A stretch of DNA of 64,000 nt from an uncultured delta proteobacterium (GCA_963771175.1 CAVYSY010000032.1:512001-576000), one strand, 5' to 3'. Counted from the first letter of the stretch, positions 7,170-28,306 are shown. Notes: generated from the letters alone by a model not told the origin. Numbers and translations are program-made.

Positions 7170-9581
7170 ATGAGCGACATTCAAGACCCGGAGCAGCCGG
7201 GAACCACTGCCGAAGCGTCGACCCGCCCCGCCGAGTACGTCGCGGATGTCAGCTTCGAAGACCTGAACCTCTCCGAGCCCCTGCGGCGTGCCATCGCCGA
7301 GCGCGGCTATACCCACCCTACCCCCGTCCAGGCCAAGGCCTTCGGCCCCGTCATGGCGGGCAAGGACCTCATCGTGCGCAGCAAGACCGGCACGGGCAAG
7401 ACGGCCGCCTTCGGCCTGCCCCTGCTGGAGAAGATTGCCGCCGAGGACAAGCGGGTGCGCGCCCTCATCCTCTGCCCCACGCGCGAGCTGGCGATCCAGG
7501 TGGCCGAGGAGCTGTCCTCCCTGGGCAAGCACAAGGGCGTGAAGGTGGCGGCCATCTACGGCGGCGCCTCCATGAAGCAGCAGGAGGACGCCCTGGAGGA
7601 GGGCACGCAAATCATCGTGGGCACGCCCGGCCGGGTGTTCGACCACATCAACCGCGGCAACCTCAAGCTCGAGGGCTGCACCCACGCGGTGCTGGATGAA
7701 GCCGACGAGATGCTCAACCAGGGCTTCTACGAGGAGGTCACCCGCATCCTCGACCGCCTCCCCAAGGACCGGCAGGTGCTGCTCTTCAGCGCCACCGTCC
7801 CCACGGACATCCAGAACCTGATCGCCCGCTACACCACCAACGCCGAGACGCTGCTGCTCTCCGGCGACGTCTTCACCGTCGAGCACATCCACCACATCCG
7901 CTACGACGTGTCGGACGCCTTCCCCAAGCCGCGCAACCTCATCTACGTGCTGGAGGCGGAGGAGCCGCAGAACGCCATCATCTTCTGCAACACCCGGGAT
8001 GACACGGCGCTGGTGACGGCGGTGCTCAACCGCAATGGCTTCGACGCGGACCTGCTCAACGGGGACCTGCCGCAGAAGGAGCGCGAGCGGGTGATGGGCA
8101 AGGTGAAGCGCGGCGAGGTGGCCTTCATGGTGGCCACGGACATCGCGGCGCGCGGCATCGACATCTCCGGCCTCGAGTACGTCATCAACTACTCGCTGCC
8201 CGAGGACCCGGCCGTGTACCTGCACCGGGTGGGCCGCACCGGCCGCATCGGCAACAAGGGCACCGCCATCAACCTCTTCTCCGGCCGCGAGCTGGCCACG
8301 TACACCGTGCTGGAGAAGAAGTACGGCATCAAGTTCGAGAAGCGCGAGATGCCCGCCCCCGAGGAGGCCATGCGCCTGTGGGCCGAGCGCCACGTGCGCG
8401 AAATCCGCGAGGCCGCCTCCGGCTCCATCTTCGAGGGCTTCCTCCCCCTGGCCACCCAGCTCAAGGGCCGGGCGGACGCGGATGACCTCATCGCCTTCCT
8501 GCTCAAGTACTTCTTCAGCCACCTGCGCATGGAGAAGGCCCTGGCCGCCGGGGAGACCGAGCGCACCGAGCCGCAGGAGCGCAAGCCCGAGAGCCGCCGC
8601 AAGGAAGGCGGCAGGGACCGGGAGCGCCCCCGCGAGAGGGAGCGCGAGCGGGAGAGGCCTCGGCGCGAGGAGCGTCGGGAGGTCCGTGGGGAGGCCGGCG
8701 AGCGGCGTGAGCGGGTCGAGCGGCCCCGCCGTGTCGAGCGCGAGCGCGGCCCCGGAGGGATGGAGGCCGGCCCCGGCGAGGTGAAGCTGTGGATCAACCT
8801 GGGCACCGAGGATGGCCTCGGGCCCGGCAGCATCGTCACCGCCCTGGAGGAGGCCGGCGCCCCCGCCAACAAGGTGGTGCGCGCCGACCTCAAGCCGGGC
8901 TTCGCCTACGTCTTCATCGCCCAGGAGGACCTGCCGGGCTTCGAGGCCCTCAACGGCAAGCAGTACAAGGACAAGGCGCTGAAGGTGGAGAAGAGCCGGC
9001 CGCGCGGCGAGCGCGACCCGAACCGGCCGCCGCCCTCGCCCGACGCCGGCCCCGGCGAGGTGAAGCTGAAGTTCAACCTGGGCACGGACGACGGCCTGGA
9101 CGACGCGAAGTTCGTCACCGCCCTGGAGGCCGCTGGCGCCCCCGCGGGCAAGGTGCTGAAGACGGTGCTGCGCCCCGGCTACGGCTACGCCTACGTGGCC
9201 GAGGCGGACGCCCCCGCCTTCGAGGGTCTCACCGGCAAGCAGCACGGCGAGAAGGTGCTCAAGGTGGATCGGCACCGGCCCCGCGGCTTCCGCGAGCGGC
9301 CGCCGCGCGCCGAGCGTCCCGAGCGCACCGAGACGCCCGAGGTGCCCGGCCAGGCGCGCCTGTGGGTGGGCCTCGGCCGCTCCGAGGGACTGGATGAGGC
9401 GGCCCTCACCGGCGCCCTGGAGACGCTGGGTGCCCCGGCGGGCAAGGTGCAGCGCGTGGAGCTCAAGCCCACCTACGCGTATGTCTTCGTCGCCGACGAG
9501 GACGTGGCCGGCTTCGAGGCCCTCAACGGCAAGCAGCACGGCGAGAAGACGCTGAAGATCGAGCGCGCTCGCCGCCGGTAG
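7170..9581 (+). CDS. deaD: DEAD-box RNA helicase (DeaD/CsdA-like) with three C-terminal DbpA-type RRM repeats
   Basis: Q motif, SKTGTGKT, PTRELA, DEAD, SAT, ARGID and HRVGRTGR motifs, followed by three repeated domains of about 75 aa. Confidence 0.9.
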   Translation: MSDIQDPEQPGTTAEASTRPAEYVADVSFEDLNLSEPLRRAIAERGYTHPTPVQAKAFGPVMAGKDLIVRSKTGTGKTAAFGLPLLEKIAAEDKRVRALILCPTRELAIQVAEELSSLGKHKGVKVAAIYGGASMKQQEDALEEGTQIIVGTPGRVFDHINRGNLKLEGCTHAVLDEADEMLNQGFYEEVTRILDRLPKDRQVLLFSATVPTDIQNLIARYTTNAETLLLSGDVFTVEHIHHIRYDVSDAFPKPRNLIYVLEAEEPQNAIIFCNTRDDTALVTAVLNRNGFDADLLNGDLPQKERERVMGKVKRGEVAFMVATDIAARGIDISGLEYVINYSLPEDPAVYLHRVGRTGRIGNKGTAINLFSGRELATYTVLEKKYGIKFEKREMPAPEEAMRLWAERHVREIREAASGSIFEGFLPLATQLKGRADADDLIAFLLKYFFSHLRMEKALAAGETERTEPQERKPESRRKEGGRDRERPRERERERERPRREERREVRGEAGERRERVERPRRVERERGPGGMEAGPGEVKLWINLGTEDGLGPGSIVTALEEAGAPANKVVRADLKPGFAYVFIAQEDLPGFEALNGKQYKDKALKVEKSRPRGERDPNRPPPSPDAGPGEVKLKFNLGTDDGLDDAKFVTALEAAGAPAGKVLKTVLRPGYGYAYVAEADAPAFEGLTGKQHGEKVLKVDRHRPRGFRERPPRAERPERTETPEVPGQARLWVGLGRSEGLDEAALTGALETLGAPAGKVQRVELKPTYAYVFVADEDVAGFEALNGKQHGEKTLKIERARRR

Positions 9582-9717
9582 TCGGCTCGCTCGGAGGGCG
9601 GGGTTGCGGCCCACACCGCCCCCGCCCCGAGCACCCCCCGGATGGCCTGGACTCGCCCCGCCGTGTCCGACGACCGCTCGCCGCAGGGAGGCACGGGCCA
9701 TACCTACACGCCACCGG

Positions 9718-9903
9718 CAGCACTGCCTCACCGGGCACCCAGAGAAGGCCCTGGAGTACTTCCTGCGGGCGGCCGAGACAGCGCTGATCGACCTGGAGTG
9801 GACCGACCGCTGCCCCGCGCTCGCGCCCCTGCGCGCGCTCCCGGGCTTCGCCGAGGGCCGACGTCAGGTGCGAGCCCGGGTGGCCGCCATCTGGAATGGG
9901 TAG
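9718..9903 (+). pseudogene. Orphan C-terminal fragment resembling the tail of myxobacterial kinase/TPR proteins
   Basis: EKALEYFLRAAETALIDLEWTDRCPALAPLRALPGFAE..RARVAAIW with no convincing start. The family resemblance is from recall only. Confidence 0.45.
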
Positions 9904-9917
9904 GCCTCGGGGGCGCG

Positions 9918-10646
9918 TCAGAAGTCCTCGCGAGCCTCGGCCAGGGTGTACTCCTTCCGGGCGCGGACGAGCGGCCCTGTCTTCTCCACCAGCCACGCGG
10001 GCGCGCCCTCCGGCAGGTAGAAGGACTCCTCGAAGGGCGACAGCCCCAGGTGGCGCAGGTACTCCTGGAGCATGTCGAAGGTGAACCGGTCCCTCACCCG
10101 GCGCGACTGGTACTGCTCCGGTTTCTCGAAGGAAAAGGGCTCACCGAACTGGTCGAAGGCCCAGCGGCCTCCGTCGTTGAGTGCGCTCACGGCGCGTATG
10201 CAGTTGAGCCAGGCCGTCTGGTGCGGGCCATACATGGCGAGCGCCACGGCACCATAGCGGCCCTTGTCGTTCCGGATGGTATTGGGCACGGCGACCACAC
10301 GCAGGCACCGGCAGCCCAGCGTCCGAGCCATGTAGCGCATGGGGCCGGCGGCATCGGTCCCCCGCCAGCCGTTCTCGACGTACGCCGTCCAGGGGCCGCG
10401 GGTCGGGATGAAGAGATGCCGCTGCGTTTCGGAATCCGTGAGGGGCAACAGGGCGGAGAGAGCCTGTTCCAGGGAGCCCGTCACCGGGCGAACCTCGACG
10501 GCGACACCATCGGGCGCCAGCAGCCCTGCTTGCCACGCCGCGTAGGCGCGAGCGGCATGCTCCGCATCGGTCTCCAGAAATCCCATCTCCGAAGTGACGG
10601 GCGCCCAGCGGTCGTCCAGGAGCAGTCCCTTCATGTTCTCGGTCAT
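9918..10646 (-). CDS. Putative immunity protein (SitI-like)
   Basis: 242-aa aromatic-rich soluble ORF starting 17 bp downstream of the lipoprotein toxin gene. Confidence 0.6.
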   Translation of the reverse strand: MTENMKGLLLDDRWAPVTSEMGFLETDAEHAARAYAAWQAGLLAPDGVAVEVRPVTGSLEQALSALLPLTDSETQRHLFIPTRGPWTAYVENGWRGTDAAGPMRYMARTLGCRCLRVVAVPNTIRNDKGRYGAVALAMYGPHQTAWLNCIRAVSALNDGGRWAFDQFGEPFSFEKPEQYQSRRVRDRFTFDMLQEYLRHLGLSPFEESFYLPEGAPAWLVEKTGPLVRARKEYTLAEAREDF

Positions 10647-10663
10647 CCGCTGAGCCTCGCCCC

Positions 10664-11938
10664 TCAGGGCACGATGAGGAGGATGGTTTCCGCATCCGGG
10701 TCGTTGGATGTGGTGCGCGACTGGTGGCCGGGACCACGGCCCGACGTGGGCGCGTCATACTCCACCTGATAGCGGCGGCCTTTATAGTCGAACTGCAGGT
10801 CCGGGCGGTTGACCCCGACGCGCTGGCCGTTGCGATACGTGAGTTGCTGCTGGTTCACCCGGATGTTCGTGGCGCCTATGTCATCCAGGTATTGGATGTC
10901 CGCCTGAAGCTGCGCGTTCTGCGTGGGGCTGGAGCCAATGGGACGGCTCACCTCTCGTGCGCCGGGCACCTTCGGCTTGACCGCGATATCCTGAGGCAGG
11001 CGTGGGCCAGGAATCACTGGCCGTGTCGGGTTGTTGCCAGCGAGCGCCTGGACCAATCCTGGCGATGGCGCGGGTGAGGCCGACGCGGGAGCGGGCGCTA
11101 CTGGCGCGGGAGCGGGTTCGAGAGGGGGTGCGGCGGATCGCGACACCGGCCGTCGCGGCGCCGGAGCATTCCCCCCGAGTCCCTCCTCCCGAGAAAACGG
11201 ACGAAGTGCTGGCGCCGAGCCCACCCGCACCACGCGCGAGAAGACTCCCTGCAGGACCTTGGTCCCCGTCAGGGTCAACAACAGGACCTTCAGCTCGCGC
11301 TGGACCGTCTCCGCCAGTTGCGTCCGAACCTCGAGCATCGCCCGGGCAATGCGAGGCGTGGTGGCCGGAGAGAAGAGGGTGGGCACGATGAGCGCGCCTC
11401 CCGCGCCCCTGTAATAGGCATACCTCGAGGGGCTCGACCCGGGGACATTGGCCGCCGTGTCCACCAGGGCCGTATCCCGGTCCGGGTAGATGGATGCACT
11501 CAGCGGTTCCGCGCTCTCGAGTCCCAGGTCCACATGAGACTCCGGGACAAGCACGGGCTGCGGCAGCCCCTCACAGTAGAGAAGATACCCTCCTGCGGTG
11601 AGGACAAAGCCCACGGCGGTCACACGGACATCGACGAAGTCCCGATGCGCTCGGGGGTCAGCCAGCCCTTGAGAGGCCCGAGGCAACTGGACGCCGCTCT
11701 GGCGCAGTTCCGCTGCCCGCCGTGGCGTGGGGGCCTCGAAATCGACGTCGACGGCCTGCTGCCCGAAACCTGCCGTATCCCGGTAGTGCTGAGCCGCGAC
11801 AGGGCTGTTCTGCGCGTACCACGCAGGCCCCACCAGGTCGGGCTTCGCTGCACATCCCGCGAGAAACAACAGGAGCGCAAGCCCACTCAACCCACGGAGC
11901 CACCACCCCCTGGAATGGCAATACGTCACGAGGCGCAT
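10664..11938 (-). CDS. Lipoprotein polymorphic toxin (SitA-like) with C-terminal PD-(D/E)xK-like nuclease domain
   Basis: Lipobox LLLFLAGC, Pro/Ala linker, and C-terminal NRPDLQF..YQVEYD. Confidence 0.7.
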   Translation of the reverse strand: MRLVTYCHSRGWWLRGLSGLALLLFLAGCAAKPDLVGPAWYAQNSPVAAQHYRDTAGFGQQAVDVDFEAPTPRRAAELRQSGVQLPRASQGLADPRAHRDFVDVRVTAVGFVLTAGGYLLYCEGLPQPVLVPESHVDLGLESAEPLSASIYPDRDTALVDTAANVPGSSPSRYAYYRGAGGALIVPTLFSPATTPRIARAMLEVRTQLAETVQRELKVLLLTLTGTKVLQGVFSRVVRVGSAPALRPFSREEGLGGNAPAPRRPVSRSAAPPLEPAPAPVAPAPASASPAPSPGLVQALAGNNPTRPVIPGPRLPQDIAVKPKVPGAREVSRPIGSSPTQNAQLQADIQYLDDIGATNIRVNQQQLTYRNGQRVGVNRPDLQFDYKGRRYQVEYDAPTSGRGPGHQSRTTSNDPDAETILLIVP

Positions 11939-12187
11939 GAATCCCTTCCCGTTCGAGGCGAGTGCTCAGGGTCCACGGGGAGCCCTACGAAGCAACGATG
12001 CAGAACCCACGTGGAACCCTGAAGGACGCGAGAGGTAGATGGCAGCGGGCTCGCCCGGCACCGATGACGCAGCGCACCACCCACATGACACGGGACCAGA
12101 GAAGCGCGCCCTGGATTCATCAAGCCATCGTCGAATTCGTCAAAGATGACGCTTGCGCTGGGCCGTCTTGCTGGTTACCTAGGGTCC

Positions 12188-15100
12188 ATGCCCACGCCCC
12201 CCAGACTCTTCGGCGAAGCCCTCCGCGCAGCTGCGGCTCCCTGGCGCGAGGAGCTCGGCAAATCCGACCGGGACCGGCTCGATGCCTTGCTCGGCCTCGC
12301 CGTCAGGGAGCACATCCCTCTGTCCGACTGTCTCGCGGCGCTCTTCCCGGGCACGGAGACACGGAAGGCCCAGACCGCCCTGACCTCCTTCCGCAAGCGG
12401 CTCAACGATGCCGCGAAGGGAGAGGGCCGCGCCGACCTCGGTCTTCGCTTCCAGGTGGACACCAAGAAGCAGAACCCCCCCACCGAACGCCTCTGCTGGT
12501 TCACCGGACCCGATCCCGCCGTGATGAAGGCGGAGCAGGTCTCCGACCAGCTCACAGCCGATGTCCAAGGCATGCCCTTCGTCCCGTCCCGAGGGATCAC
12601 CACCACCGGGAATGCGATGGCCTCGGGAAAGCGGGTCATCCGCTTCTTCGTCTCCTACGCCCACGACAACAGGCAGCTCGCCGAGGCGCTCGTGAAGGAC
12701 CTGGGCACCCATTTCGCCGCATCCGCCCGCTACGCGCTCATCCCCTGGATGGACCGTGACATCCTGGTGGGTGAGCGCTGGAAGGAGAGCATCGAAGAGG
12801 CCATCAAGGACTGCGACTTCGGCCTCATGCTGCTCAGCCCGGCCTTCTTCGCGAGCAGATTCATCAAGGCGCACGAGCTGCCCCGGTTCGTGGGCGCTCC
12901 GGACAATCCCAGACTCAAGCCCGTCCTGCCCGTGGGATTGGTGCCGATCACGTTCGGCAGGCACGATCTCCAGGGGCTTGAAGAGCACCAGATCTTCCGA
13001 TTCCAAAACGAGCGGCTCGAGGGGCGCTACTACGATCAGATGCCGGCTGGCGCCCGGAGGCGCGAGTTCGTCCGCCAGCTCCACCTCGCCATCGAGAAGC
13101 GCCTCGACGCTTTTTTTTTGACTCCCCCTCCCGGCACGCCCCCCTCCCCTCCCAGGCCCGAGGCACGCACTCCTGACCTCCTCGCCGACCATGTCCCGGT
13201 TCCGGAGGAGACCCCCAACCACCAGCGCAACAAGGGCCTCCCGCTCGCCCTGGTGGACCTGGAGCGGCTCGACACCGGAGGACTCGACCTCGCGGAGCAC
13301 GTCCAGGCGCGCGACGCGCTCGACGAGCTCGAGTCCTGGGCCACCAACTCCGCCGCTCCGCCATTCTTCGCGCTGCTCGGGGAATATGGCATTGGCAAGA
13401 CCACCACCCTGAAGCAGCTCACCCGTCACCTGCTGGAGGAACGCAAGTCCAGACCGGAGCTGCCGCTCCCCATCTACGTGGACCTCCGCGCCTACGTCGG
13501 CGAGACCCGGGACAGCGTTCCCACCATCGAGCAGCTCCTCGCCCGTGTGATGGAGCGGAGCTGGAAGCTGCGGGACCGCAACATCACCCCCCAGGACGTT
13601 CTGCGCCTCGTCCGGGAGGAGGGCGCGCTCATCCTCTTCGATGGTCTGGACGAGAAGATCGTCCACCTCCAGCCCGACCGCGCCCGTGACTTCATCCGCA
13701 CGCTCTGGGCCGTCCTCCCTGATGCCGCACGAAGCGAGGACCCCCTGCCGCCCGGGAAGCGCCGGGGCAAGTTCCTCATCTCCTGCCGCTCTCATTACTT
13801 CCGCGACGTGTTGAGTCAGAACTCGATGCTCGTCGGCGAGGATCGCGAGGGCTTCGAGCGCAACCAGTTTCCCGCCCTCTGCCTCCTGCCATTCACCGAG
13901 GAGCAGATCCGGAGCTATCTGACTTCGCTCCTCGGAGACGCGGAGCGTGGGGCGGAGGCGTTCGAAGTCATTGCCTCCATCCACAATCTCCGGGAGCTCG
14001 CGCAACGGCCCTACCTGCTCACCCTCATCAGCGGCCGCCTCGGAGAGCTGGAGACGCTCCAGGCCCAGGGCGAACAGGTGAATGCCGCGCGGCTGTACGA
14101 ACTCGTCGTCCGCTCCTGGCTCAACCGCGACGACGGGAAGCACCAGCTCGACCCCGTGCACAAGAGCCGCATCATGGAGGACCTCGCCGCCGCGCTCTGG
14201 CGTGACGGCAGCAAGCAGTGGGACGTGGAGCGCCTCGAGGCATGGTTCGACGAGTATCTCGCCGGGAACCCCGCGCTCGCCGCGGCCTACGCGAACAAGG
14301 ACCGCGCCGTCCTCAAGGAGGATCTCCGCACCGCCACCTTCGTGCTGCGGCCCACCACGGAGGAGAAGCACTTCCGCTTCGCCCATACCTCCCTGCAGGA
14401 ATACTTCCTCGCCGCCCACCTCAAGCGCGCGCTGGTCGAGGGACAGGTGGCGCGCTGGGACCTGCCGAGGGTCTCCCGGGAGACGCTGGACTTCCTCGGG
14501 CAGCTCCTGGCCCTCGAGCCCCGGCCCGAGGCCCTGCGCTCGCTGGAGGCCATTCTGGGCGGCGAGTGCCTCGCCGCGGCCGTGCTCGCGTTCGCCTACT
14601 GGCTGCGCGCCCTCGAGCAGGGGCACCCGGTGCCCGCCCCGCAAGCGAGTGAAGCTCGCCGGGGCGGACCTGGAAGAATGGCACCTGCGCGGCCGCGGCC
14701 CCGCGCAGCCGCTGAACCTGCGCGGGGCCGACCTTTCCGGCGTGCGAGCTCAATCGCGCCGGGTCGAGCACGTGAACCTCGCCGATGCCGATCTCACCGC
14801 GCTACAGGCGAGGCAGGCGCTGTTCTTGAAGGTGAGCGCGCCGCGAGCGCGAGCACGGAATGCCGATTTCCGCGGGCTGCGGTGGCGGGAGGGCTCGCTG
14901 TTGGGCGCGGAGCTCCGCGGAGCACAGCTCGCGGGTTGTCAGTTCATCCGGGTGGACCTCGCCGGGGCGAGCCTGCCGGAGGGATGGGAGCGCCACGCCA
15001 CCGTCGTGGAGGAACGCCGAAGCGCTCCCCCTCCTCGAATGGGTACGCCGTCCCTGGCGGTGCTCCTCGGTCACGCCAACTACGGTGAGGGCGTGCGCGT

Positions 15101-17014
15101 GGAGTCCAGACGGCCAGCGCCTCCTGTCTGGCTCTTCCGACAAGTCCCTGCGGGTGTGGGACGCCGCGTCCGGCGACTGCCTTCTCACCCTCTCCGGCCA
15201 TGCCTCCCCGGTGACGGCGTGCGCGTGGAGTCCGGACGGCCAGCGCCTCCTGTCTGGCTCTGACGACCACTCCCTGAGGGTGTGGGACGCCACGTCCGGC
15301 GACTGCCTTCTCACCCTCTCCGGCCATGCCTCCTCGGTGAATGCGTGCGCGTGGAGTCCGGACGGCCAGCGCCTCCTGTCGGGCTCTTCCGACCACTCCC
15401 TGCAGGGTGTGGGACGCCACGTCCGGCGACATGCCTTCTCACCCTCTCCGGCCATGCCTCCTCGGTGAGGGCGTGCGCGTGGAGTCCGGACGGCCAGCGC
15501 CTCCTGTCGGGCTCTTCCGACAACTCCCTGCGGGTGTGGGACGCCGCGTCCGGCGACTGCCTTCTCACCCTCTCCGGCCATGCCTCCTCGGTGACGGCGT
15601 GCGCGTGGAGTCCGGACGGCCAGCGCCTCCTGTCGGGCTCTTCCGACAACTCCCTGAGGGTGTGGGACGCCGCGTCCGGCGACTGCCTTCTCACCCTCTC
15701 CGGCCATGCCTCCTCGGTGTTGGCGTGCGCGTGGAGTCCGGACGGCCGGCGCCTCCTGTCGGGCTCTTTCGACCACTCCCTGAAGGTGTGGGACGCCACG
15801 TCCGGCGACTGCCTGCTCACCCTCTCGGGCCATGCCTCCCATGCCTCCCCGGTGACGGCGTGCGCGTGGAGTCCGGACGGCCGGCGCCTCCTGTCGGGCT
15901 CTTTCGACAACTCCCTGAGGGTGTGGGACGCCGCGTCCGGCGACTGCCTTCTCACCCTCTCCGGCCATGCCTCCCATGCCCCCCGGTGACGGCATGCGCG
16001 TGGAGTCCGGACGGCCAGCGCCTCCTGTCTGGCTCTGACGACAGCTCCCTGAGGGTGTGGGACGCCGCGTCCGGCGACTGCCTTCTCACCCTCTCCGGCC
16101 ATGCCTCCTCGGTATTGGCGTGCGCGTGGAGTCCGGACGGCCAGCGCCTCCTGTCTGGCTCTGCCGACAGCTCCCTGAGGGTGTGGGACGCCACGTCCGG
16201 CGACTGCCTTCTCACCCTCTCCGGCCATGCCTCCTGGGTGAATGCGTGCGCGTGGAGTCCGGACGGCCAGCGCCTCCTGTCTGGCTCTGACGACAGCTCC
16301 CTGCAGGTGTGGGACGCCGCGTCCGGCGACTGCCTTCTCACCCTCTCCGGCCATGCCGATTCGGTGTGGGCGTGCGCATGGAGTCCGGACGGCCAGCGCC
16401 TCCTGTCTGGCTCTTCCGACCACTCCCTGCGGGTGTGGGACGCCGCGTCCGGCGACTGCCTTCTCACCCTCTCCGGCCATGCCTCCCCGGTGACGGCATG
16501 CGCGTGGAGTCCGGACAGCCAGCGCCTCCTGTCTGGCTCTGACGACAGCTCCCTGCGGGTGTGGGACGCCGCGTCCGGCGACTGCCTTCTCACCCTCTCC
16601 GGCCATGCCGATTCGGTGTGGGCGTGCGCGTGGAGTCCGGACGGCCGGCGCCTCCTGTCTGGCTCTTCCGACAGCTCCCTGAGGGGGTGGGACGCCACGT
16701 CCGGCGACTGCCTTCTCACCCTCTCCGGCCATGCCTCCTGGGTGAATGCGTGCGCGTGGAGTCCGGACGGCCAGCGCCTCCTGTCTGGCTCTTCCGACCA
16801 CTCCCTGAGGGTGTGGGACGCATCCTCGGGCCAATGCGTCTGGTCCAGCCATCTCTTCCCGGAGGGGCAAATCGCGTCAATCGACGAGGTTCACGGACGC
16901 GTCCTCCATGCATCCCCCGAAGCCTGGCGCTGGCTGGGCTGGCGCTGGAACGACCCCGCCACTGGCCAGCTTCGTATCCTCCCCGCTGAATCCCTTGGCC
17001 CACTCCCCGCTTGA
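12188..17014 (+). CDS. NLR-like STAND protein: wHTH-like N-terminus, TIR, NACHT, pentapeptide repeats, 14 WD40 repeats (frameshifts near 14640, 15080, 15405-15430 and 15985)
   Basis: TIR FFVSYAH..WMDRDI..LLSPAFFAS..HEL, Walker A GEYGIGKTT, Walker B LILFDGLDE, FAHTSLQEYF, LRGADL repeats and GH..WD repeats. Confidence 0.85.
15069..16850 (+). repeat. 14 tandem 126-bp WD40-coding repeats with very high internal identity
   Basis: Unit heads GGCCATGCC recur at 126-bp spacing (about 15450, 15576, 15702, 15828, then 16097, 16223, 16349, 16475, 16601, 16727). Two units carry a 9-bp CATGCCTCC duplication. Confidence 0.95.
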
Positions 17015-17083
17015 TTGGCTGCGCGGTGCCTCGTCCGCCCGGCGGTGACGAATCGAACCACAGGGGTCATCCCGGGTCCGCCG

Positions 17084-17119
17084 CCCCTCACCCCGACCCT
17101 CTCCCGGACGGAGAGGGAG
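17084..17119. repeat. REP-like palindromic element
   Basis: CCCCTCACCCCGACCCTCTCCCGGACGGAGAGGGAG, with stem CCCTCTCC/GGAGAGGG, overlapping the XRE gene stop codon. Confidence 0.6.
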
Positions 17120-17612
17120 GGGTTTGCGGGGTTTTCGCTCTCCTCGCCCGGTGGTAGTGCGCCACGCACAGCTCCTTGGCCAGCACCGGCTTCCCACAGC
17201 CCGGCTCCTTGCAGCGGGGAGCCTCCTCGGGGCGGCGCCTGTCCGGTGGCTCCCGCTGGCCGAACATCGCCTCCGCCACCGCCAGCAGCCGATCCACCTC
17301 GGCCCGTCCCAGCCCGCGCGCGCGCACGAACTCCACCAGCCGGTGCGCCCCCGCCGCCTCGTCCTCCTCCACCCGGAAGAGCTCCGCCAGGGGCACGCCC
17401 AGCGCCGCCGCCACCTGAACGAGCGTCTCGTAGCTGGGGCTGCGCTCGCCCCGCTCCAGCAGCGACGCGAAGCTCACCGAGATGCCACACCGGGCGGCGA
17501 AGTCCTCCTGGGTCAGCCCCCGCCGCTCGCGCAGGGTGCGGATGCGGCGCGCGAGCCCCTGCAGGTGCCCGCTCGCATCCTGGGCTGACGGGGAACTGGA
17601 GCGCATCGCCAA
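17088..17612 (-). CDS. XRE-family HTH regulator with C-terminal Cys/His zinc finger
   Basis: RIRTLRERRGLTQEDFAARCGISVSFASLLERGERSPS, and CKEPGC..LCVAHY. Confidence 0.85.
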   Translation of the reverse strand: MAMRSSSPSAQDASGHLQGLARRIRTLRERRGLTQEDFAARCGISVSFASLLERGERSPSYETLVQVAAALGVPLAELFRVEEDEAAGAHRLVEFVRARGLGRAEVDRLLAVAEAMFGQREPPDRRRPEEAPRCKEPGCGKPVLAKELCVAHYHRARRAKTPQTPPSPSGRGSG

Positions 17613-17697
17613 CCCATGTTAGCGCACCCCTTCTGTTAAGGTCTCGCGCCGTCGCAGGTCCCCCGCGCGAGGGACGCCCCAGGAGAGCACCCCGGCC

Positions 17698-18927
17698 ATG
17701 CACGCCGTCGAAGCGATTCACCACTACTTCCGCAAGGCCGCTCGCATCATGGACGTGGGTGAGCGCATCGAGACGCTGCTCGCCACGCCCCTGCGCGAGG
17801 TGAAGGTCCAGGTCTCCATCGAGCTCGACAGCGGGGAGATCCGCACCTTCCACGGCTACCGCATCCAGCACGACAACAGCCGCGGCCCCATGAAGGGCGG
17901 CCTGCGCTACCACCCCACCATCAACCAGGACGAGTGCGTGGCGCTCGCCTCGCTGATGACGTGGAAGACGGCCGTGGTGAACCTCCCCTATGGCGGGGCC
18001 AAGGGCGGCATCGCGGTGGACCCCACCCAGCTCAGCTTCAAGGAGATGGAGCGCCTCACCCGCAAGTACGTGGACCAGATTCAAGACGTCATCGGTCCCA
18101 CCCGGGACATCGCCGCGCCCGACGTCAACACCAACCCCCAGGTGATGGCGTGGATCATGGACCAGTACTCGCGCTACCACGGGCACTCGCCGGCCGTCGT
18201 CACCGGCAAGCCGCCGGAGCTGTACGGCACCAAGGGCCGTGACTCGGCCACCGGGCGCGGGCTGCTCTACATCACCCGCGAAATCCTCCGGGACACGGGC
18301 ATGCCCATGAAGGGCACGCGCTTCGCCATCCAGGGCTTCGGCAACGTGGGCAGCCACACCGCGCAACTGCTGTCGCAGGACGGAGGCGTGGTGGTGGCCG
18401 TCGCGGACGTGTACGGCGGCGTCTACAACCCGCAGGGCCTGGACGTCCCCGGCCTCTTCGAGCACGTAAAGCGCACCGGCACCGTCACCGGCTTCGGCGG
18501 GGGCCAGGCATGCAAGAGCGAGGACGTGCTGGCCGCCGACTGCGACGTGCTCATCCCCGCCGCGCTCGGCCATTCGCTCAACCGCACCACCGCCAACGCG
18601 GTGCGCGCCCGGCTCATCATCGAGGGCGCCAACGGCCCCACCGACCCCGAGGCCGATGAGATTCTCGAGAAGAACGGCGTGCTCGTGGTGCCGGACATCC
18701 TCGCCAACGCGGGCGGTGTGACCGTCAGCTACTACGAGTGGGTGCAGAATCTCCAGCACCTCTCCTGGGAGGAGGACCGGGTGAACGCCGAGCTGGAGAA
18801 GACGATGAAGGAGGCCTACGACCGGGTGGCCCAGGTCGCGCGCTCGCGCAAGGTGACGTTGCGCACCGCGGCATTCATCCTGGCGATCGGCCGCGTGGGC
18901 AAGGCCACGGTGCTGCGCGGCATCTGA
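17698..18927 (+). CDS. gdhA: Glu/Leu/Phe/Val dehydrogenase (glutamate dehydrogenase)
   Basis: GPMKGGLRYHP, GGAKGG, APDVNT, QGFGNVG and EGANGP motifs. Confidence 0.92.
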   Translation: MHAVEAIHHYFRKAARIMDVGERIETLLATPLREVKVQVSIELDSGEIRTFHGYRIQHDNSRGPMKGGLRYHPTINQDECVALASLMTWKTAVVNLPYGGAKGGIAVDPTQLSFKEMERLTRKYVDQIQDVIGPTRDIAAPDVNTNPQVMAWIMDQYSRYHGHSPAVVTGKPPELYGTKGRDSATGRGLLYITREILRDTGMPMKGTRFAIQGFGNVGSHTAQLLSQDGGVVVAVADVYGGVYNPQGLDVPGLFEHVKRTGTVTGFGGGQACKSEDVLAADCDVLIPAALGHSLNRTTANAVRARLIIEGANGPTDPEADEILEKNGVLVVPDILANAGGVTVSYYEWVQNLQHLSWEEDRVNAELEKTMKEAYDRVAQVARSRKVTLRTAAFILAIGRVGKATVLRGI

Positions 18928-19010
18928 CAGACGAGCAGGCGGGCGTCTCCCCGAGGCTCCCGCCCCTTTCGCCCGGGCAGCGCTTCGGTTATCAGGCCCG
19001 ACACAAGCCC

Positions 19011-20226
19011 ATGGTCACCCTCCAGCAGATCGAAGACGCCCAGCAGCGCATCGGAGAATGCCGTCTACCGCTCTCCCTGCCCGAAGTCGGAGCAGTTCAA
19101 GGAGCTCACGGACTGCTCGGCGCTCTTCTGCAAGCTGGAGAACCTGCAGCGCACGGGTGCCTTCAAGGAGCGCGGCGCCCTCAACAAGCTGCTCACCCTC
19201 ACACCGGAGGAGCGGGCCCGCGGCGTCATCGCCGCCTCGGCGGGCAACCACTCGCAGGGGCTCGCCTACCACGCGGGCCGTTTGAGCGTGAACGCCACCA
19301 TCGTGATGCCGGAGCGCACCCCGCTCATCAAGGCCACGCGCACGCGCGGCTACGGCGCCACGGTGGTGCTGCACGGCACCAACTTCGACGAGGCCTACGC
19401 CGAGGCCCTGCGCATCCAGGATCGCGAGAACCGCGTCTTCGTCCACCCCTTCAATGATCCGCTCGTCATCGCCGGCCAGGGCACCATCGGCCTGGAGCTG
19501 CTCGAGCAGATTCCGTACATGGACATGGTGGTGGTGCCCATCGGCGGCGGCGGGCTCATCTCCGGCGTGGCGTGCGCGCTCAAGGAGACCAACCCGCGCA
19601 TCAAAATCATCGGCGTGCAGGCCGCGGCCATCGCGAGCATGAAGGCCTCGGTGGACGCGGGGAAGCTGGTGGAGCTGCCCGCCGGCACCACCATCGCGGA
19701 CGGCATCGCGGTGAAGCGCCCCGGCGACTACACCTACGAGATGATCCGCCGCTACGTGGACGACATCGTCACGGTGGACGAGGAGGAGATCGCCAACGCC
19801 ATCCTCCTGCTGCTCGAGCGAGAGAAAACGGTGGTGGAGGGCGCGGGAGCGGTGGGCCTGGCGGCGCTCATCCACGGGAAGATTCCCTCGGCGCGCGGCC
19901 GCAAGGTGGTGCTGCTCATCTCGGGCGGCAACATCGACGTCAACCTCGTCAGCCGCATCATCGAGCGCGGCCTGGTGAAGGACGGGCGACTGGTGCGGCT
20001 GAGCGTGCGCATGCCGGACCGGCCGGGGATGCTCGCGCAGCTCACCGCGGAGATTGCCCAGCAGGGCGCCAACGTGGTGGAGATCTACCACAACCGAGCC
20101 TTCTCCAAGGCGGGCCTGGGCGAGGTGGCGGTGGAGGTGACGCTGGAGACGCGCGGGCGCGGCCACATCGTGGACCTGATCGCCAGCCTGTCGCGGAACG
20201 GCTGGCAGGTCGCGGAAGAGACCTGA
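19011..20226 (+). CDS. ilvA: Threonine ammonia-lyase with ACT domain (frameshift near 19058)
   Basis: KLENLQRTGAFKERGA, ASAGNH, PIGGGGLISG, SGGNID and a C-terminal ACT (PDRPG). Confidence 0.9.
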
Positions 20227-20378
20227 GGCGCTGGCCCTCACTTCTGGACGTCCAGAAGCAACCCGCACTCGTAGTCGGCTACGAGTGACGCAGCAGTGAA
20301 CCTGCTGGGTTGTCCGATACGGAGGGGTGTCAGTGGGGAGGCTTAGGGTGTCCGAGCAACCCGAGTCTCGGAGGCCCC

Positions 20379-22994: not shown

Positions 22995-25900
22995 ATGTCG
23001 GACACGCGTGCGGCGATGAGGGAGTTTCGCTTCCTGGATGAGAAGCGGACGCGGGGAATCCTTTCCCCCGCGGAGGAAGCTCGTTGGAGCGAGCTACAGG
23101 GGCTCCTGGCTACCCAGGGTGTGCCCACGCAGGAGTCCGCCGAGGCCATGGACCCCGCGCAGCAGCCCCAGGGCTACTACGGCGCCGATGGTCAGTGGTA
23201 CGCCTACCCCGCCGACTACTCCCAGTCCGGCTACGCCGCGCAGGGCTACGATCCCCACCAGGGCTACGCGCAGCAGCCCCAGGGCTACTACGGCGCCGAT
23301 GGCCAGTGGTACGCCTACCCCGCCCAGGGCGAGGGCGGCTACGACCCCAACCAGGGCTACGCGCAGCAGCCCCAGGGCTACTACGGTGCCGATGGCCAGT
23401 GGTACGCCTACCCCGCCCGGCGAGGGCGGCTACGACCCCAACCAGGCCTACGATCCCAACCAGGCCTACGCGCAGCAGCCCCAGGGCTACTACGGCGCCG
23501 ATGGCCAGTGGTACGCCTACCCCGCCCAGGGCGGCTACGACCCCAACCAGGCCTACGATCCCAACCAGGCCTACGCGGCCACGCAGGGTCAGCCCTACGC
23601 CGATCCGCAGCAGGCCTACGCGGCCGGCTACGCCGAGCAGCAGCCCTACCCGCAGACGACCACGGACGTGCCGCAGCCGGCACAGGAGCCGACCCCGCTC
23701 AGCCTCGAGAACGAGAACCTCGACATCCCCGCGCTGAACGGACCCGCGCCCTGGGCAGAGCCCACGCCGGAGCCCGCCGCGCCCGTCGACGAGGCCCAGC
23801 CCGAGTTCGAAGCCCAGCCCGAGTTCGAAGCCCAGCCCGAGTTCGAAGCCCAGCCCGAGTTCGAGGCCCAGCCCGAGTTCGAAGCCCAGCCCGAGTTCGA
23901 GGCCCAGTCCGAGCTCGAGGCCGAGCCCCTCGACACGGCCGAGCCCGTCGCCGAGGACGTCTTCGAGGTCTCCGACACCGACGTCACACCCGTCAGCGAG
24001 GCCACGCCGATCCCCGAGCGGCTCGAGGAGCCCGAGTCCGTCGACATGACCGGCTGGGAGGACCCCACTCCCGCGCAGGCCGAGTCCCCGGCGGATCTGC
24101 CGATGTTCGAGGCCTCGCCCGAGCCAGAGCCCTCGTCGCCCATCGAACTGGGCGAGGACGACTTCTCCGCACTCAACTCCGACCTGGGGGCTCCCGCTCC
24201 CGCGTCCGCACCGCCCGTGGTCGAGGAGGAGCCCACGACTCCGGTCCGGACCATCGAGGTGCAACCCACCGACATCGAGCTGCTCGAGGGCGCCGTCGAA
24301 GAGCAGCTCACGCCCGAGCCGGTGCTCGCCGAGGAGCCCACCGCTCCCGTCGCCAACGAGTGGGACTCCGCGCCGCTCGCGGTGGACATGGAGTCGAGCA
24401 CCGCCGCGACCCCACCGCCGCATGCCGACGCCGAGACCTCGGAAGTCGCCCTGCTCGATCAGAGCCGGATGGAGATCACCGCGTCGTACGCGCTCCCCGC
24501 GTATCCGACGGGTGACGTCGCCCTGCTCGAAATGGATGTCACGGCGCCTTCCGCCCGGCCCCTGCCTCCCCTGGAGGAGACCGAAGCGGTCGACGAGACA
24601 CCCACGTTCGACGTCTCCGAGCTCGAGGCCACGCCCGAGCTGGAGCCAGCCCCCACGCTGGACATGCCGTGGCAGACCGACGCCGACACGGCGGCGCTCG
24701 ATGCGAGCCCCGCCCTGGAGTCCGCACCGCACGCCGAGCCCAGCCGCGGAGGAGCCCACCTTCGACGTGGCCGACCTCGGTGCCGAGATGGAGCCGACGC
24801 CCGCCCCGGCTTTCGCGGCCCAGGAACACCCGACCACGCTGGAACTGCACCCGGTGCAGGTCGCGCCCGATCTCCAGGCGGACACGATCGAGCTCGCCGA
24901 CACGTACGAGCCCGGGGCCGTGCAGCCCGAGCACAACACCCTGACCTGGGGCAGCAACGAGGTCGTGCCCTCGGGCGAGCAGCCGTTCGACCTGACCGGG
25001 GACTCGGGCGAGCCCGTGCCGCTCGTCAACGCGAACGAGTTCCTGGGCCACGCCGATGAGGCCGGGACGTCCGTGTCCTCCGAGCCCGTCCCGCTCGAGA
25101 CGGCGGATGCCGACGCGAGCTGGAGCGGAAACGAGGGCTCTGGAGAGAGCCTCCAACTCGAGAGCGCCGCGGAGTACATGAGCACTCCGGAGTTCACCTC
25201 CGCCAGCGCCACCTGGGGACACCAGCCGGGGAGCGAAGAGCTCACGGCGGAGACGAACGCCACGCCCGAGAGCACCACGGCGTACGGCGACAGCCAGAGC
25301 GCGGATGCCGAGCTGCCCTCCATCGAGGCCCAGCCCGAGTGGAGCGCGTCGGCCGAGGAGCCGGCGCCCATCGAGGTCCAGGCGGAGTGGACCTCCACCG
25401 AGCCCGCTACCGTAGAGCCATCCGCCGAGGGCCAGACCGACTGGTCCGCACCGGTCGATGAGCAGCCCGTCCTCGAGGCTCAGCCCGAGTGGAGCGCATC
25501 GACCGAGGAGGCGGCGCCCATCGAGGTCCAGGGCGAGTGGTCCACACCGGCCGAGGAGCAGCCTGTTGCCGAGGCTCAGCCCGAGTGGGCCACTCCCGCC
25601 GAGGGCCAGACCGATTGGTCCGCACCGGTCGAGGAGCAGCCCGTCCTCGAGGCTCAGCCCGAGTGGAGCGCATCGACCGAGGAGGCAGCGCCCATCGAGG
25701 TCCAGGGCGAGTGGTCCACACCGGCCGAGGAGCAGCCCGTTGCCGAGGCCCAGCCCGAGTGGGCCACTCCCGCCGAGGAGCAGCCTGTCCTCGAGGCACA
25801 GGCCGAGTGGTCCACACCGGCCGAGGAGCAGCCCGTCCTCGAGGCTCAGGCCGAGTGGGCCACTCCCGCCGAGGAGCAGCCTGTTGCCGAGGCTCAGACC

Positions 25901-28246
25901 GAGTGGGCCACTCCCACCGAGGGACAGACCGACTGGTCCGCACCGGTCGAGGAGCAGCCCGTCCTCGAGGCTCAGCCCGAGTGGGCCACTCCCGTCGAGG
26001 AGCAGCCCGTTGCCGAGGCCCAGCCGGAGTGGGCCACTCCCGCCGAGGAGCAGCCTGTTGCCGAGGCTCAGCCCGAGTGGGCCACTCCCGCCGAGGGCCA
26101 GACCGACTGGTCCGCACCGGTCGAGGAGCAGCCCGTCCTCGAGGCTCAGCCCGAGTGGGCTTCTCCCGCCGAGGAGCAGCCTGCTGTTGAGGCCCAGTCC
26201 GAGTGGGCCACTCCCGCCGAGGGCCAGACCGACTGGTCCGCTCCCGCCGAGGAGCAGCCTGTCCTCGAGGCGCAGACTGAGTGGGCCACTCCCGCCGAGG
26301 AGCAGCCTGCTGTTGAGGCGCAGCCAGAGTGGGCCACTCCCGCTGAGGTCCAGGGCGAGTGGTCCACACCGGCCGAGGAGCAGCCCGTCCTCGAGGCTCA
26401 GGCCGAGTGGACCACTCCCGCCGAGGAGCAGCCTGTTGCCGAGGCTCAGGCCGAGTGGACCACTCCCGCCGAGGGACAGACCGACTGGTCCGCACCGGTC
26501 GAGGAGCAGCCCATCCTCGAGGCTCAGCCCGAGTGGAGCGCATCGACCGAGGAGGCAGCGCCCATCGAGGTCCAGGGCGAGTGGTCCACACCGGCCGAGG
26601 AGCAGCCTGTTGCCGAGGTCCAGCCCGAGTGGGCCACTCCCGCCGAGGAGCAGCCTGTCCTCGAGGCACAGCCCGAGTGGACCACTCCCGCCGAGGAGCA
26701 GCCCGTTGCCGCGGCCCAGCCCGAGTGGGCCACTCCCGCCGAGGAGCAGCCTGTCCTCGAGGCTCAGCCCGAGTGGGCCACTCCCGCCGAGGAGCAGCCC
26801 GTCCTCGAGGCTCAGCCCGAGTGGGCCTCTCCCGCCGAGGAGCAGCCTGCTGTTGAGGCCCAGTCCGAGTGGGCCACTCCCGCCGAGGGACAGACCGACT
26901 GGTCCGCTCCCGCCGAGCAGCCCGTTGCCGAGGCCCAGCCCGAGTGGGCCGCTCCCGTCGAGGAGCAGCCCGTTGCCGAGGCCCAGCCCGAGTGGGCCTC
27001 TCCCGCCGAGGGGCAGACCGACTGGTCCGCTCCCGCCGAGCAGCAGCCCTGGATGGCCGCCGCCGAGCCGTCGGCCCCCGTCGAGCTCCAGCCCGAGTGG
27101 GCGTCCGAGAGCTCCACGCAGGACTGGAACGCCGCTCCGGCAGCTGAGCCCCAGACGGACTGGAACGCTCCCGCCGAGGCCCAGCCCGAGTGGAACGCGC
27201 CCGTCGAGGAGGTGCAGCCCGAGTGGGCCAGCGCGCCCGCGGAGACGAATTGGAACGCGCCCACCGAGAGCCAGGGTGAGTGGAACGCGACGGCCCAAGA
27301 CGCCGAGCCGCCCCTGAGCCCCGATACGAACGCGTCCCTGTTCGGCACGAGTCCGACCTGGTCGGCCGAGGAGTCGGAGGCCGGTGCGCAGGAGCAGTGG
27401 TCCGGCCAGCAGCAGGCGCCGGCGTGGGGTCAGGGCGACGGCGCGTACGGCACGCCCGTCGAGGAGCTCTCGGGCTCCGAGCAGACTCCCGAGGCCGACC
27501 TCCCGGTCATGGAGGCCGAGCCCGAGATGCCCGAGATCGACCTGGGCGAGCCCGAGGCCGACCTCCCGGTCATGGAGGCCGAGCCCGAGATGCCCGAGAT
27601 CGATCTCTCGGAGGACATCGTGGAGTCGCCCCCCGTGGCGGCTCCGGTGGCCCCCGCGCCGGTGGCCAGGACCGCGGCCCCCGCGATGCCTCCGCGGGCT
27701 CCCTCGGTCCCGGCGATGCCCCCGCCCCCGCCCATGGCGCCTCCGGCTCCCGTGGCGGCTCCGAGGGCGGCACTCGTGCCTGGGGCGCCTCCGCCTCGGT
27801 CCACGCTCCAAGCCATCCCGACGGTGCAGGCCTCGGCACAGTCGGCGTCCGCCGTGCCCATGGCCCCCATCAACGCCTTCATCGAGGGCGAGCACCGGGT
27901 CATCATCCACACGGTGGAGGGCCAGGTGAAGCGCGGTGCCATCCGCGACGTGGACCTGCTCGACGAGGCCATCCCGCTCGAGCAGCAGACCGGCTTCGCC
28001 CCCGAGCACATCCCGGTCACGCGCGTGAAGGCCATCTTCTTCATGCTCGCCACCGGCAGCCGTCCGCCGCAGCCGGAGGGGCAGAAGATCCGCGTCACCT
28101 TCAATGACGGTCGCCAGGTGGCCGGCTTCTCCCACGACTACAAGAACACCGGGCAGGGCTTCTTCGTCATCCCCGCGGACACGCGCACCAACACCTCGCG
28201 CATCTTCATCTACCGCGCGAGCGTGCAGGCCGTCGCCGAGGGCTGA
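22995..28246 (+). CDS. Giant acidic tandem-repeat protein with C-terminal DUF6982-like domain (frameshifts near 23418 and 24745)
   Basis: Continuous coding signal across three ORFs. Folded ends are MREFRFLDEKR.. and EGEHRVIIHTVEGQVKRG..RIFIYR. Confidence 0.8.
23160..23575 (+). repeat. Four QQPQGYYGADGQWYAYP repeats with YDPNQ spacers
   Basis: Direct repeats visible in both DNA and protein. Confidence 0.9.
23791..23916 (+). repeat. 18-bp VNTR encoding EAQPEF x6 plus one degenerate copy
   Basis: GA(G/A)GCCCAGCCCGAGTTC in tandem. Confidence 0.92.
25320..27295 (+). repeat. Mosaic coding array of EEQPV(L/A)EAQPEWATPA (48 bp) and EGQTDWSAP units
   Basis: Dozens of Trp-anchored acidic units. Confidence 0.92.
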
Positions 28247-28271
28247 GCCACCCCGCCCAAGCCCGTGAATG

Positions 28272-28306
28272 AACGAGGGGCCTCGTCACCGAGGCCCCTC
28301 GTTTTG
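28272..28306 (+). terminator. Intrinsic terminator
   Basis: AACGAGGGGCCTCG-TCAC-CGAGGCCCCTCGTT followed by TT. Confidence 0.75.

Follow-up and report, generated by a model that had tools for sequence, protein, structure and literature searches.

Among the closest described counterparts of the gene studied here are the HNWD/NWD proteins of Podospora anserina (HET-E, HET-D, and HET-R), NACHT-WD40 receptors whose repeats are highly conserved within each array (PMC4986451, PMC12222747; Paoletti 2007 cited therein). Among prokaryotes, highly repetitive WD40 proteins have been catalogued, with their diversity falling at predicted hotspot sites (Hu 2017, PMC5587647), and the bacterial NACHT (bNACHT) anti-phage proteins are described as having TIR effectors and beta-propeller and pentapeptide sensors, with NNH domains also listed (Kibby 2022 preprint, 10.1101/2022.07.19.500537). 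For bacterial NOD-like receptor (NLR) proteins, WD and TPR repeats with 80-90% internal identity are said to be ones that "might similarly" diversify as in fungi (Dyrka 2020, bioRxiv 10.1101/2020.01.06.895854). A survey of high-internal-conservation (HIC) NLRs in all domains of life likewise states that bacterial NLR-like WD40/TPR repeats with 80-90% internal identity may diversify like fungal ones, and the N-terminal domains listed for these proteins in a figure legend there include NNH6 and TIR-2 (GBE 2026, PMC13449251). The window analyzed here, a stretch of 64,000 nucleotides (CAVYSY010000032.1:512001-576000) from an Archangium metagenome-assembled genome (MAG; GCA_963771175.1) of a soil myxobacterium, contains one NLR-type gene of the signal transduction ATPases with numerous domains (STAND) class at 12146-17014. 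The gene has ~1,620 codons and runs NNH6, TIR_2, NACHT, pentapeptide repeats, 14 WD40 units, and a C-terminal tail.

We consider it likely that this gene specifies an NLR-type receptor with a 14-blade sensor, that its homogenized blade scaffold together with hypervariability at five residues per blade reflects selection for changing ligand specificity, and that the frameshifts in its assembled sequence are assembly errors. Concerted evolution of the units and hypervariability of the modeled top face are supported by the comparisons below, while the ligand, and any change of specificity, are inferred. Window coordinates are used throughout, and the source genome is referred to as G000.

Fourteen near-identical WD40 units

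The original prediction, made from the DNA alone, had placed 14 tandem, almost identical 126-bp WD40 units at 15069-16850, and both repeat finding and unit anchoring bear this out. The array and the two length variants within it are as follows.

15069..16850, + strand: WD40 array, 14 units of 126 bp (42 codons), from repeat finding, unit anchoring, Pfam, and the structural model
15831..15848, + strand: 9-bp tandem duplication of CATGCCTCC in the D-A loop of unit 7 (GHASHASP); unit length 135 bp
15966-15980, + strand: second occurrence of the 9-bp duplication of CATGCCTCC, in unit 8; unit length 134 bp

Tandem Repeats Finder reported a single array at 15083-16821, with a period of 126, 13.7 copies, 91% matches, 1% indels, and a score of 2768. 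When unit starts were located by the anchor GG[CT]CA[TC]GCC, 14 were found, at 15069, 15196, 15322, 15450, 15576, 15702, 15828, 15963, 16097, 16223, 16349, 16475, 16601, and 16727, with successive spacings of 127, 126, 128, 126, 126, 126, 135, and 134 bp followed by five of 126 bp. Units are numbered below in a register of 42 codons, G1 H2 A3 ... S42.

Every variant that had been read after GHA (SSVR, SPVT, SSVN, SSVT, SSVL, SWVN, and DSVW) and after LLSGS (SDK, DDH, SDH, SDN, FDH, FDN, DDS, ADS, and SDS) is present in the unit list, and unit 1, when translated across its indel, carries a further head, N-Y-V-R, that had been missed. Head types recur in nonadjacent units as proposed (DSVW in units 11 and 13; SWVN in 10 and 14; PVT in 2, 7, 8, and 12), and the 9-bp duplication said to be common to units 7 and 8 is visible in both as a repeated CATGCCTCC that yields GHASHASP. 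Units 7 and 8 share this head and differ downstream, at codon 16 (Arg/Gln), at codon 20 (TCG/TCT), and in their tails (FDN/DDS).

Synonymous divergence (dS) between units is low, at 0.086 over the 37 scaffold codons, but not zero. With 91% nucleotide matches and a scaffold amino-acid identity of 0.96 within G000, internal identity lies in the range of ~85% or more, and in the closest relatives unit identity is 0.77-0.88 over all 42 positions. Two residues that are otherwise invariant in the scaffold show a singleton change, Val29 to Gly in unit 13 (16670-16672, SLRGWD) and Gly15 to Ser in unit 12 (16517-16519, SPDS); these may be base errors of the assembly instead of true variants.

Variation is concentrated at five codons

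When the G000 units were aligned and substitutions counted codon by codon, variation was concentrated at codons 4, 5, 7, 23, and 25, each of which takes three to five amino acids through differences that are all nonsynonymous. Codons 16, 28, and 33 are slightly variable, and synonymous variants are scattered. The five codons hold 14 of the 19 minimal amino-acid state changes, a concentration that random placement matched in 20 of 100,000 trials. By simple Nei-Gojobori counts, nonsynonymous divergence (dN) in G000 is 0.687 at the five codons, a set chosen post hoc in this array, against a dS of 0.0855 and a dN of 0.0185 over the remaining 37.

The same positions stand out in other members of the family. 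Leaving G000 aside, there are 27 independent family arrays whose internal identity is 0.70 or more, and in these the highest within-array entropies fall at positions 23, 7, 5, 4, and 25 (2.02, 1.95, 1.84, 1.73, and 1.52, respectively), the next-ranked position reaching 1.16. The hypervariable positions picked out in G000 are thus those ranking highest elsewhere. At the DNA level, G000 was compared with four related loci whose units are at least 88% identical (L024-L027). Five-codon dN (0.41-0.75) exceeded scaffold dS (0.02-0.24) in all five arrays, including two from cleaner assemblies, that on a complete chromosome of a Cystobacter fuscus isolate (L027; 0.512 vs. 0.06) and L024 (0.414 vs. 0.023).

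We then mapped these positions onto a predicted propeller. An AlphaFold2 (AF2) model of 15980-17011, covering the last seven units and the tail and built with no alignment, had a predicted local distance difference test score (pLDDT) of 80.8, a predicted template modeling score of 0.76, and 28 strands; Foldseek matched it to the seven-bladed propellers 5yzv, 7big, and 2ymu at a root-mean-square deviation of ~1.0 Å. The closest solved relative by sequence is 2ymu_A (E 2.6e-147). Strands assigned by DSSP on the model occupy register positions 6-11 (A), 17-22 (B), 27-31 (C), and 37-41 (D). In the model, the D-A loop holds positions 4 and 5, strand A has position 7 near its beginning, and the B-C turn holds 23 and 25, one on each side of a conserved Asp. 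These elements make up the top face of WD40 propellers, which serves for partner binding, and the positions equivalent to 5, 7, and 23 presumably line the arginine pocket of WDR5.

The proposal that 14 units make two seven-bladed propellers fits the family norm, the seven-unit model, and the 14-repeat structure 2YMU. On the strength of that model and of 2YMU, the array is predicted to form two separate seven-bladed propellers.

Units evolve in concert within each genome

The concerted evolution that had been proposed for the array is evident from how units group. Each species carries its own scaffold in all of its units: ...SGDCLLTLS in G000, SGECLRTLS in P0004, and SGSCLLTLS in P0007. For 96 of 103 units, the nearest scaffold neighbors lie solely within the same protein, and scaffold identity between orthologues is the same at matching unit indices as at any index. 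In a tree of 65 units from five genomes, built from scaffold codons only, the genome label requires four changes, the fewest possible; shuffled labels required 39.4 on average, and none of 200 shuffles came down to four. The unit-index label requires 60. Units therefore group by genome and not by position.

The variable residues have no positional counterpart between orthologues either: at the same blade index their identity is 0.06-0.36, no higher than elsewhere. Two syntenic Cystobacter loci share 91.75% identity over 9.7 kb; both have 14 units, but their scaffold variants and their variable residues differ.

The joining of heads to different tails had been taken as a sign of shuffling. This does not follow, since the graph of head types against tail types, read by hand, has 13 edges, 17 nodes, and four components, and hence no cycle; it is no proof of recombination. 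Evidence for mosaicism comes solely from four-gamete conflicts between nonhypervariable site pairs (9 of 15 in G000, 3 of 3 in L024, 63 of 120 in L025, 16 of 45 in L026, and 2 of 10 in L027), conflicts that might also stem from repeated mutation or from a consensus that is itself mosaic.

The original prediction had also proposed a search for other loci sharing the unit. A blastn search of the 9.83-Mb genome (81.66% complete) placed all 14 matches inside this array, and the other WD40 loci in the genome have at most 39% protein identity. As no other G000 locus carries the unit, homogenization would be intragenic, without the exchange between paralogues known from fungi. A target of a diversity-generating retroelement was considered and rejected, given that the unit occurs nowhere else in the genome and that the codon sets are not adenine-patterned (e.g., TCG/CCG/TGG and TCC/GAC/TTC/GCC). 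No reverse transcriptase was found among the scanned open reading frames (ORFs) lying between 10 and 22 kb in the window.

The NLR-type gene and its family

Apart from the array, the gene is composed of the following parts.

12146..14640, + strand: N-terminal and central part, with an NNH6 helical domain, a TIR_2 effector, and a NACHT NTPase with helical arm (window frame 2, Pfam)
14652..15068, + strand: pentapeptide-repeat region and linker, ending in the D-strand-like SLAVLLGH before unit 1 (frame 0, Pfam)
16826..17014, + strand: Trp-rich C-terminal tail of ~60 residues (…LFPEGQ…EAWRWLGWRW.DPATGQLR.LP…), followed by the stop codon (orthologue comparison)

All Pfam assignments lie above their cut-offs: NNH6 at residues 25-131 (79.4 bits, cut-off 27), TIR_2 at residues 167-267 (48.9 bits, cut-off 28), NACHT (PF05729) at residues 409-512 (32 bits, cut-off 26.7), and the pentapeptide repeats (36.8 bits, cut-off 20.2), which are also present in orthologues and family proteins. 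WD40 scored 285 bits in seven stretches on 15980-17011, that is, on the last seven units and the tail. Of the 55 family sequences aligned, 90% or more retain the Walker A (GExGxGKTT) and Walker B (FDGLDE) motifs. The layout is tripartite, with an effector part (NNH6 and TIR_2), NACHT, and a repeat part (pentapeptide and WD40), and orthologues have it in one continuous frame. Orthologues with 77-84% identity occur in three Archangium MAGs, of which those in G002 and G007 pass from NACHT through the pentapeptide region to WD40 without a frame break.

The Trp-rich tail is conserved from Archangium to Cystobacter (the G007 orthologue, L024, L027, and two metagenome loci). A Pfam search of the tail returned no family at E≤0.1, and in the single-sequence model its pLDDT stays under 50. 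A scan of metagenome contigs with a strict back-translated tail motif gave no match; with a looser tail pattern it gave two loci, a 72%-identical homologue with 10 units (L064) and a 1.1-kb fragment (L065).

A family search with the N-terminal 832 residues as query, limited to proteins of 1,457-4,160 aa, recovered 54 full-length homologues of 1,461-1,733 aa, and a scan of genome contigs gave 44 loci. By source name the hosts include Hyalangium, Cystobacter, Prosthecobacter and other Verrucomicrobia, Gemmataceae, Thermoanaerobaculia, and Limnocylindria; the family is spread patchily over Myxococcota, Verrucomicrobiota, Planctomycetota, Acidobacteriota, and Chloroflexota. A hidden Markov model of the unit counted exactly 14 units in 43 of the 54 proteins, 8-13 in 11, and more than 14 in none, at internal unit identities from 0.32 to 0.88. 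On these sequence counts, the repeat number looks fixed rather than variable.

When the window protein, P0004, and P0007 were searched with PADLOC v2.0.0 (2023 library), the matches were TIR-like only (ThsB-like, SAVED_TIR, and PDC-S66), together with a repeat match to HEAT-ARM_XIII.

Frameshifts in the assembled gene

As assembled, the gene is broken by five single-base indels, four of them within the array, which the original prediction had not reported.

14641..14641, + strand: apparent +1 frameshift between the NACHT arm and the pentapeptide region (frame 2 to 0); orthologues are in-frame here, ...PVPTPKRVKLAG...
15081..15085, + strand: one base too many in the unit 1 head (frame 0 to 1); unit of 127 bp
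15403..15431, + strand: two extra bases in unit 3, one inside CTGCAGGGTG at 15403-15407 and an A at 15431, jointly frame 1 to 0
15980..15981, + strand: missing T in a C run in unit 8 (frame 0 to 2), CATGCC-CCCCGG against CATGCCTCCCCGG in unit 7

Unit 3 is 128 bp long, and its alignment shows two single-base insertion columns. We aligned short-read contigs of close relatives from public runs over 12000-20300, some X1 pieces being ~99% identical to the window. At 14641, the contigs of X1 (depth 8.8 of 13.6) and X2 (9.79 of 9.79) have one base fewer. At 15081 an X2 contig (9.79 of 9.79) again has one base fewer, and one X1 contig is in-frame with a different unit 1 head (joint 15080>15335, one letter between).

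Similar indels are found in conserved genes of G000. Against the complete relative G004, and counting only stretches in which the G004 ORF stays open for 300 aa or more, G000 has 24 isolated 1-nt indels (18 insertions and 6 deletions in G000) in 35,793 aligned bases, that is, ~0.67 per kb in the conserved coding DNA of the window compared with five in 4.9 kb (~1.0 per kb) in the NLR gene. In ilvA, an extra T at 19059 has no counterpart in any of four relatives or in contigs of X1, X3, and X7, in which the omitted base is placed at 19057. Marker completeness of G000 is 81.66% despite its 58 mostly large contigs, a value that fits broken reading frames. Because housekeeping genes show a comparable indel background and the added bases at 14641 and 15081 are missing from contigs of relatives, the five frameshifts are most likely errors of a noisy assembly rather than signs of gene decay. 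Programmed frameshifting or phase variation was rejected as the principal explanation, with only one of the five indels in a homopolymer run and similar indels in housekeeping genes.

The single-base indels seen in conserved G000 genes are mostly insertions (e.g., at 163, 649, 681, 1216, 19059, 31316, 31991, and 49050-49690). They are widespread enough that any frameshift or pseudogene call in this genome is to be distrusted.

Genomic neighborhood

Directly upstream of the NLR gene, on the minus strand at 9918-11938, lie a 424-aa ORF with a lipoprotein-like N terminus (…LLLFLAGC…) and then a 242-aa ORF. Paralogous pairs occur on contigs C49 and C27, with a lone copy of the 242-aa ORF on C54. 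Neither ORF matched Pfam or NCBIfam; in a protein atlas, the 424-aa ORF is nearest to Myxococcota clusters with Tox-REase-5 (scores 0.87-0.88, a lead only). The two look like a polymorphic nuclease-toxin/immunity pair, of a kind that we take to be exchanged between myxobacterial cells. Downstream lies an HTH gene:

17088-17612, - strand: HTH_3 gene (XRE-type helix-turn-helix [HTH])

Three single G000 bases inside the HTH gene, at 17233, 17245, and 17247, are missing from an X1 contig and could be either assembly noise or a small genuine difference.

The toxin-like pair and the NLR gene together make up 7.5 kb (9580-17127), flanked on both sides by sequence collinear with that of the complete relative G004, in which the slot instead holds ~4.5 kb with a Ser/Thr protein kinase and an extracytoplasmic function (ECF) sigma factor with DUF6596. 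A defense island was rejected on this ground, the kinase and sigma factor giving no sign of a conserved defense hotspot. The neighbors of the NLR gene differ in the three Archangium MAGs that carry it, and no counterparts of the 424-aa ORF, the 242-aa ORF, or the downstream HTH gene were found beside 46 related loci (L020-L065). Farther along the window, a long ORF region at 23000-28300 aligns to G004 at many offsets with ~70% identity, which indicates an internally repetitive Pro/Glu/Ala-rich coding repeat in what would be a very large protein (the G004 ORF has 1,861 aa).

Discussion

Near-identical arrays are prone to misassembly, as has been shown for Illumina data on such arrays (Ament-Velasquez 2025, PMC12222747), so the unit number, unit order, mosaic look, and frameshifts might all come from assembling a 1.8-kb array from noisy or short reads. 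The indel noise of G000, with four indels in the array itself, fits such an origin, as does the behavior of relatives' short-read MAGs, which break or collapse here (the G010 contig stops after NACHT, that of G002 stops in unit 5, and G007 has two units), and of relatives' contigs, which leave the array interior uncovered. We nevertheless regard an artifact as unlikely: the G000 count equals the family mode of 14, the same hypervariable positions and homogeneous scaffold are found in the complete isolate chromosome L027 and at other clean loci, and the variable codons, unlike random errors, are separated by more than one base change and appear repeatedly across the units. If instead the frameshifts were genuine, the array would be what remains of a receptor that this strain has ceased to produce. 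The gene is accessory and absent from the complete relative G004, its indel rate is above the background, and three of its indels lie outside informative contigs; yet housekeeping genes carry isolated 1-nt indels at a comparable rate, contigs of close relatives are free of the added bases at 14641 and 15081, orthologues are intact, and a scaffold dN/dS of ~0.22 speaks of past constraint. A true pseudogene thus seems quite improbable.

Two further readings dispense with diversifying selection. High internal identity has been ascribed to recent duplication (Hu 2017, PMC5587647), and the 14 units might have been amplified recently from one, with exposed loops, which tolerate change, drifting faster under no selection for specificity. 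Neutrality does not predict that five-codon dN should exceed scaffold dS in every array compared, and at least eight related lineages have 14 units with scaffolds of their own, which would need repeated reamplification to the same number. With four-gamete conflicts in the scaffolds of all five arrays besides, young amplification with neutral drift is very improbable. Alternatively, each blade might keep its contacts for one conserved, asymmetric partner, selection shielding these from homogenization with no diversification at all. Such a ligand would likewise give high between-blade dN on a homogenized scaffold, and the apparently fixed number of 14 fits it, but residues at matching indices are no more alike between orthologues than those of arbitrary blades, and the two syntenic Cystobacter loci carry different residue sets. 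We hold this to be the least likely of the explanations.

Several points weigh against the receptor reading that we favor. The dN/dS values are counts on recombining repeats at codons picked after the fact, and, as gene conversion depresses scaffold dS, the contrast comes out too large. For G000, both the order of the units and their exact sequence derive from an indel-rich assembly; contig depth is nil at 15878-16154 in all four runs, X1 lacks most of 15601-16708, and the indels at 15403-15407, 15431, and 15980 fall outside informative contigs, which leaves room for gene decay. As to unit number, the size range of the family search bars members with fewer than ~10 units, and shorter arrays do occur in short-read assemblies (2 units in G007 and 10 in L064), although these are possibly collapsed. 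No strain of the same species was present among the metagenome contigs scanned by tail motif, and PADLOC found no NACHT or Avs system model in the three proteins searched.

Under the reading of a diversifying receptor, the blade scaffold would be kept nearly uniform within a genome by gene conversion or recombination between units of the same array, while five residues per blade would be kept different between blades and turn over completely between related species. By analogy with other NLR/TIR systems, a foreign or modified-self protein would bind the propeller tops and free NACHT to oligomerize; oligomerization would gather the TIR domains, which would consume NAD+ or produce a signal, and the infected cell would arrest or die.

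A bolder and unlikely extension is that the myxobacterial family is a counterpart of HET-E held at exactly 14 blades, its 70 contact residues renewed by length-neutral gene conversion at a single locus without donor paralogues, and that it perhaps reads conspecific or predator/prey proteins (kin/non-self) rather than phage proteins. The host is social and cell-contact-dependent, and in this genome the gene adjoins a lipoprotein toxin/immunity-like pair. We know of no defense phenotype for the NNH6-TIR-NACHT-WD40 family.

The family offers a well-replicated bacterial example of what would be an innate-immune-type receptor renewing its binding surface without a dedicated mutator. Intact copies in cultured Cystobacter and Hyalangium make the diversification idea, so far in print only as a possibility (Dyrka 2020), directly testable. 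The array also carries a caution, in that a repeat array in an indel-noisy assembly is to be read neither as a pseudogene nor as proof of recent shuffling.

Compared with known systems, the locus resembles the Podospora HNWD genes, with 126-bp, 42-residue WD40 units behind a NACHT domain that are near-identical, evolve in concert, and vary at a few hypervariable codons on the interaction surface. It differs from them in its effector (NNH6 and TIR_2 here, HET there), in its pentapeptide segment and conserved C-terminal tail, in having no paralogue with the unit and no exchange between loci, and in being bacterial, with a patchy spread over several phyla. The repeat number, fixed-looking at 14 here (43 of 54), is polymorphic in Podospora, where functional alleles usually have ~11 (PMC12222747). 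With the bNACHT proteins the gene shares the tripartite arrangement of effector, NACHT, and repeat sensor. Near-identical repeats do not figure in the accessible part of Kibby 2022, and no member of the NNH6-TIR-NACHT-WD40 family was found among PADLOC models.

The features of the highly repetitive WD40s described by Hu 2017 (high internal identity, often 14 repeats forming two domains, and diversity at predicted hotspots) are all seen here. Npun_R6612 of Nostoc punctiforme (PDB 2YMU) likewise has 14 near-identical repeats in two propellers, and its blades also vary at register 7 (R/W/N). Where Hu 2017 explains such identity by recent duplication and discusses stability, the lineage-specific 14-unit scaffolds found here point to ongoing homogenization. 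For bacteria the pattern is already in print (Hu 2017, Dyrka 2020, GBE 2026). The statements in Dyrka 2020 and GBE 2026 are at survey level, and a per-codon, orthologue-by-orthologue analysis of the family does not appear in the accessible text of either. What is added here is a large family apparently held at 14 blades, without positional orthology of blades or donor paralogues and with a conserved Trp-rich tail.

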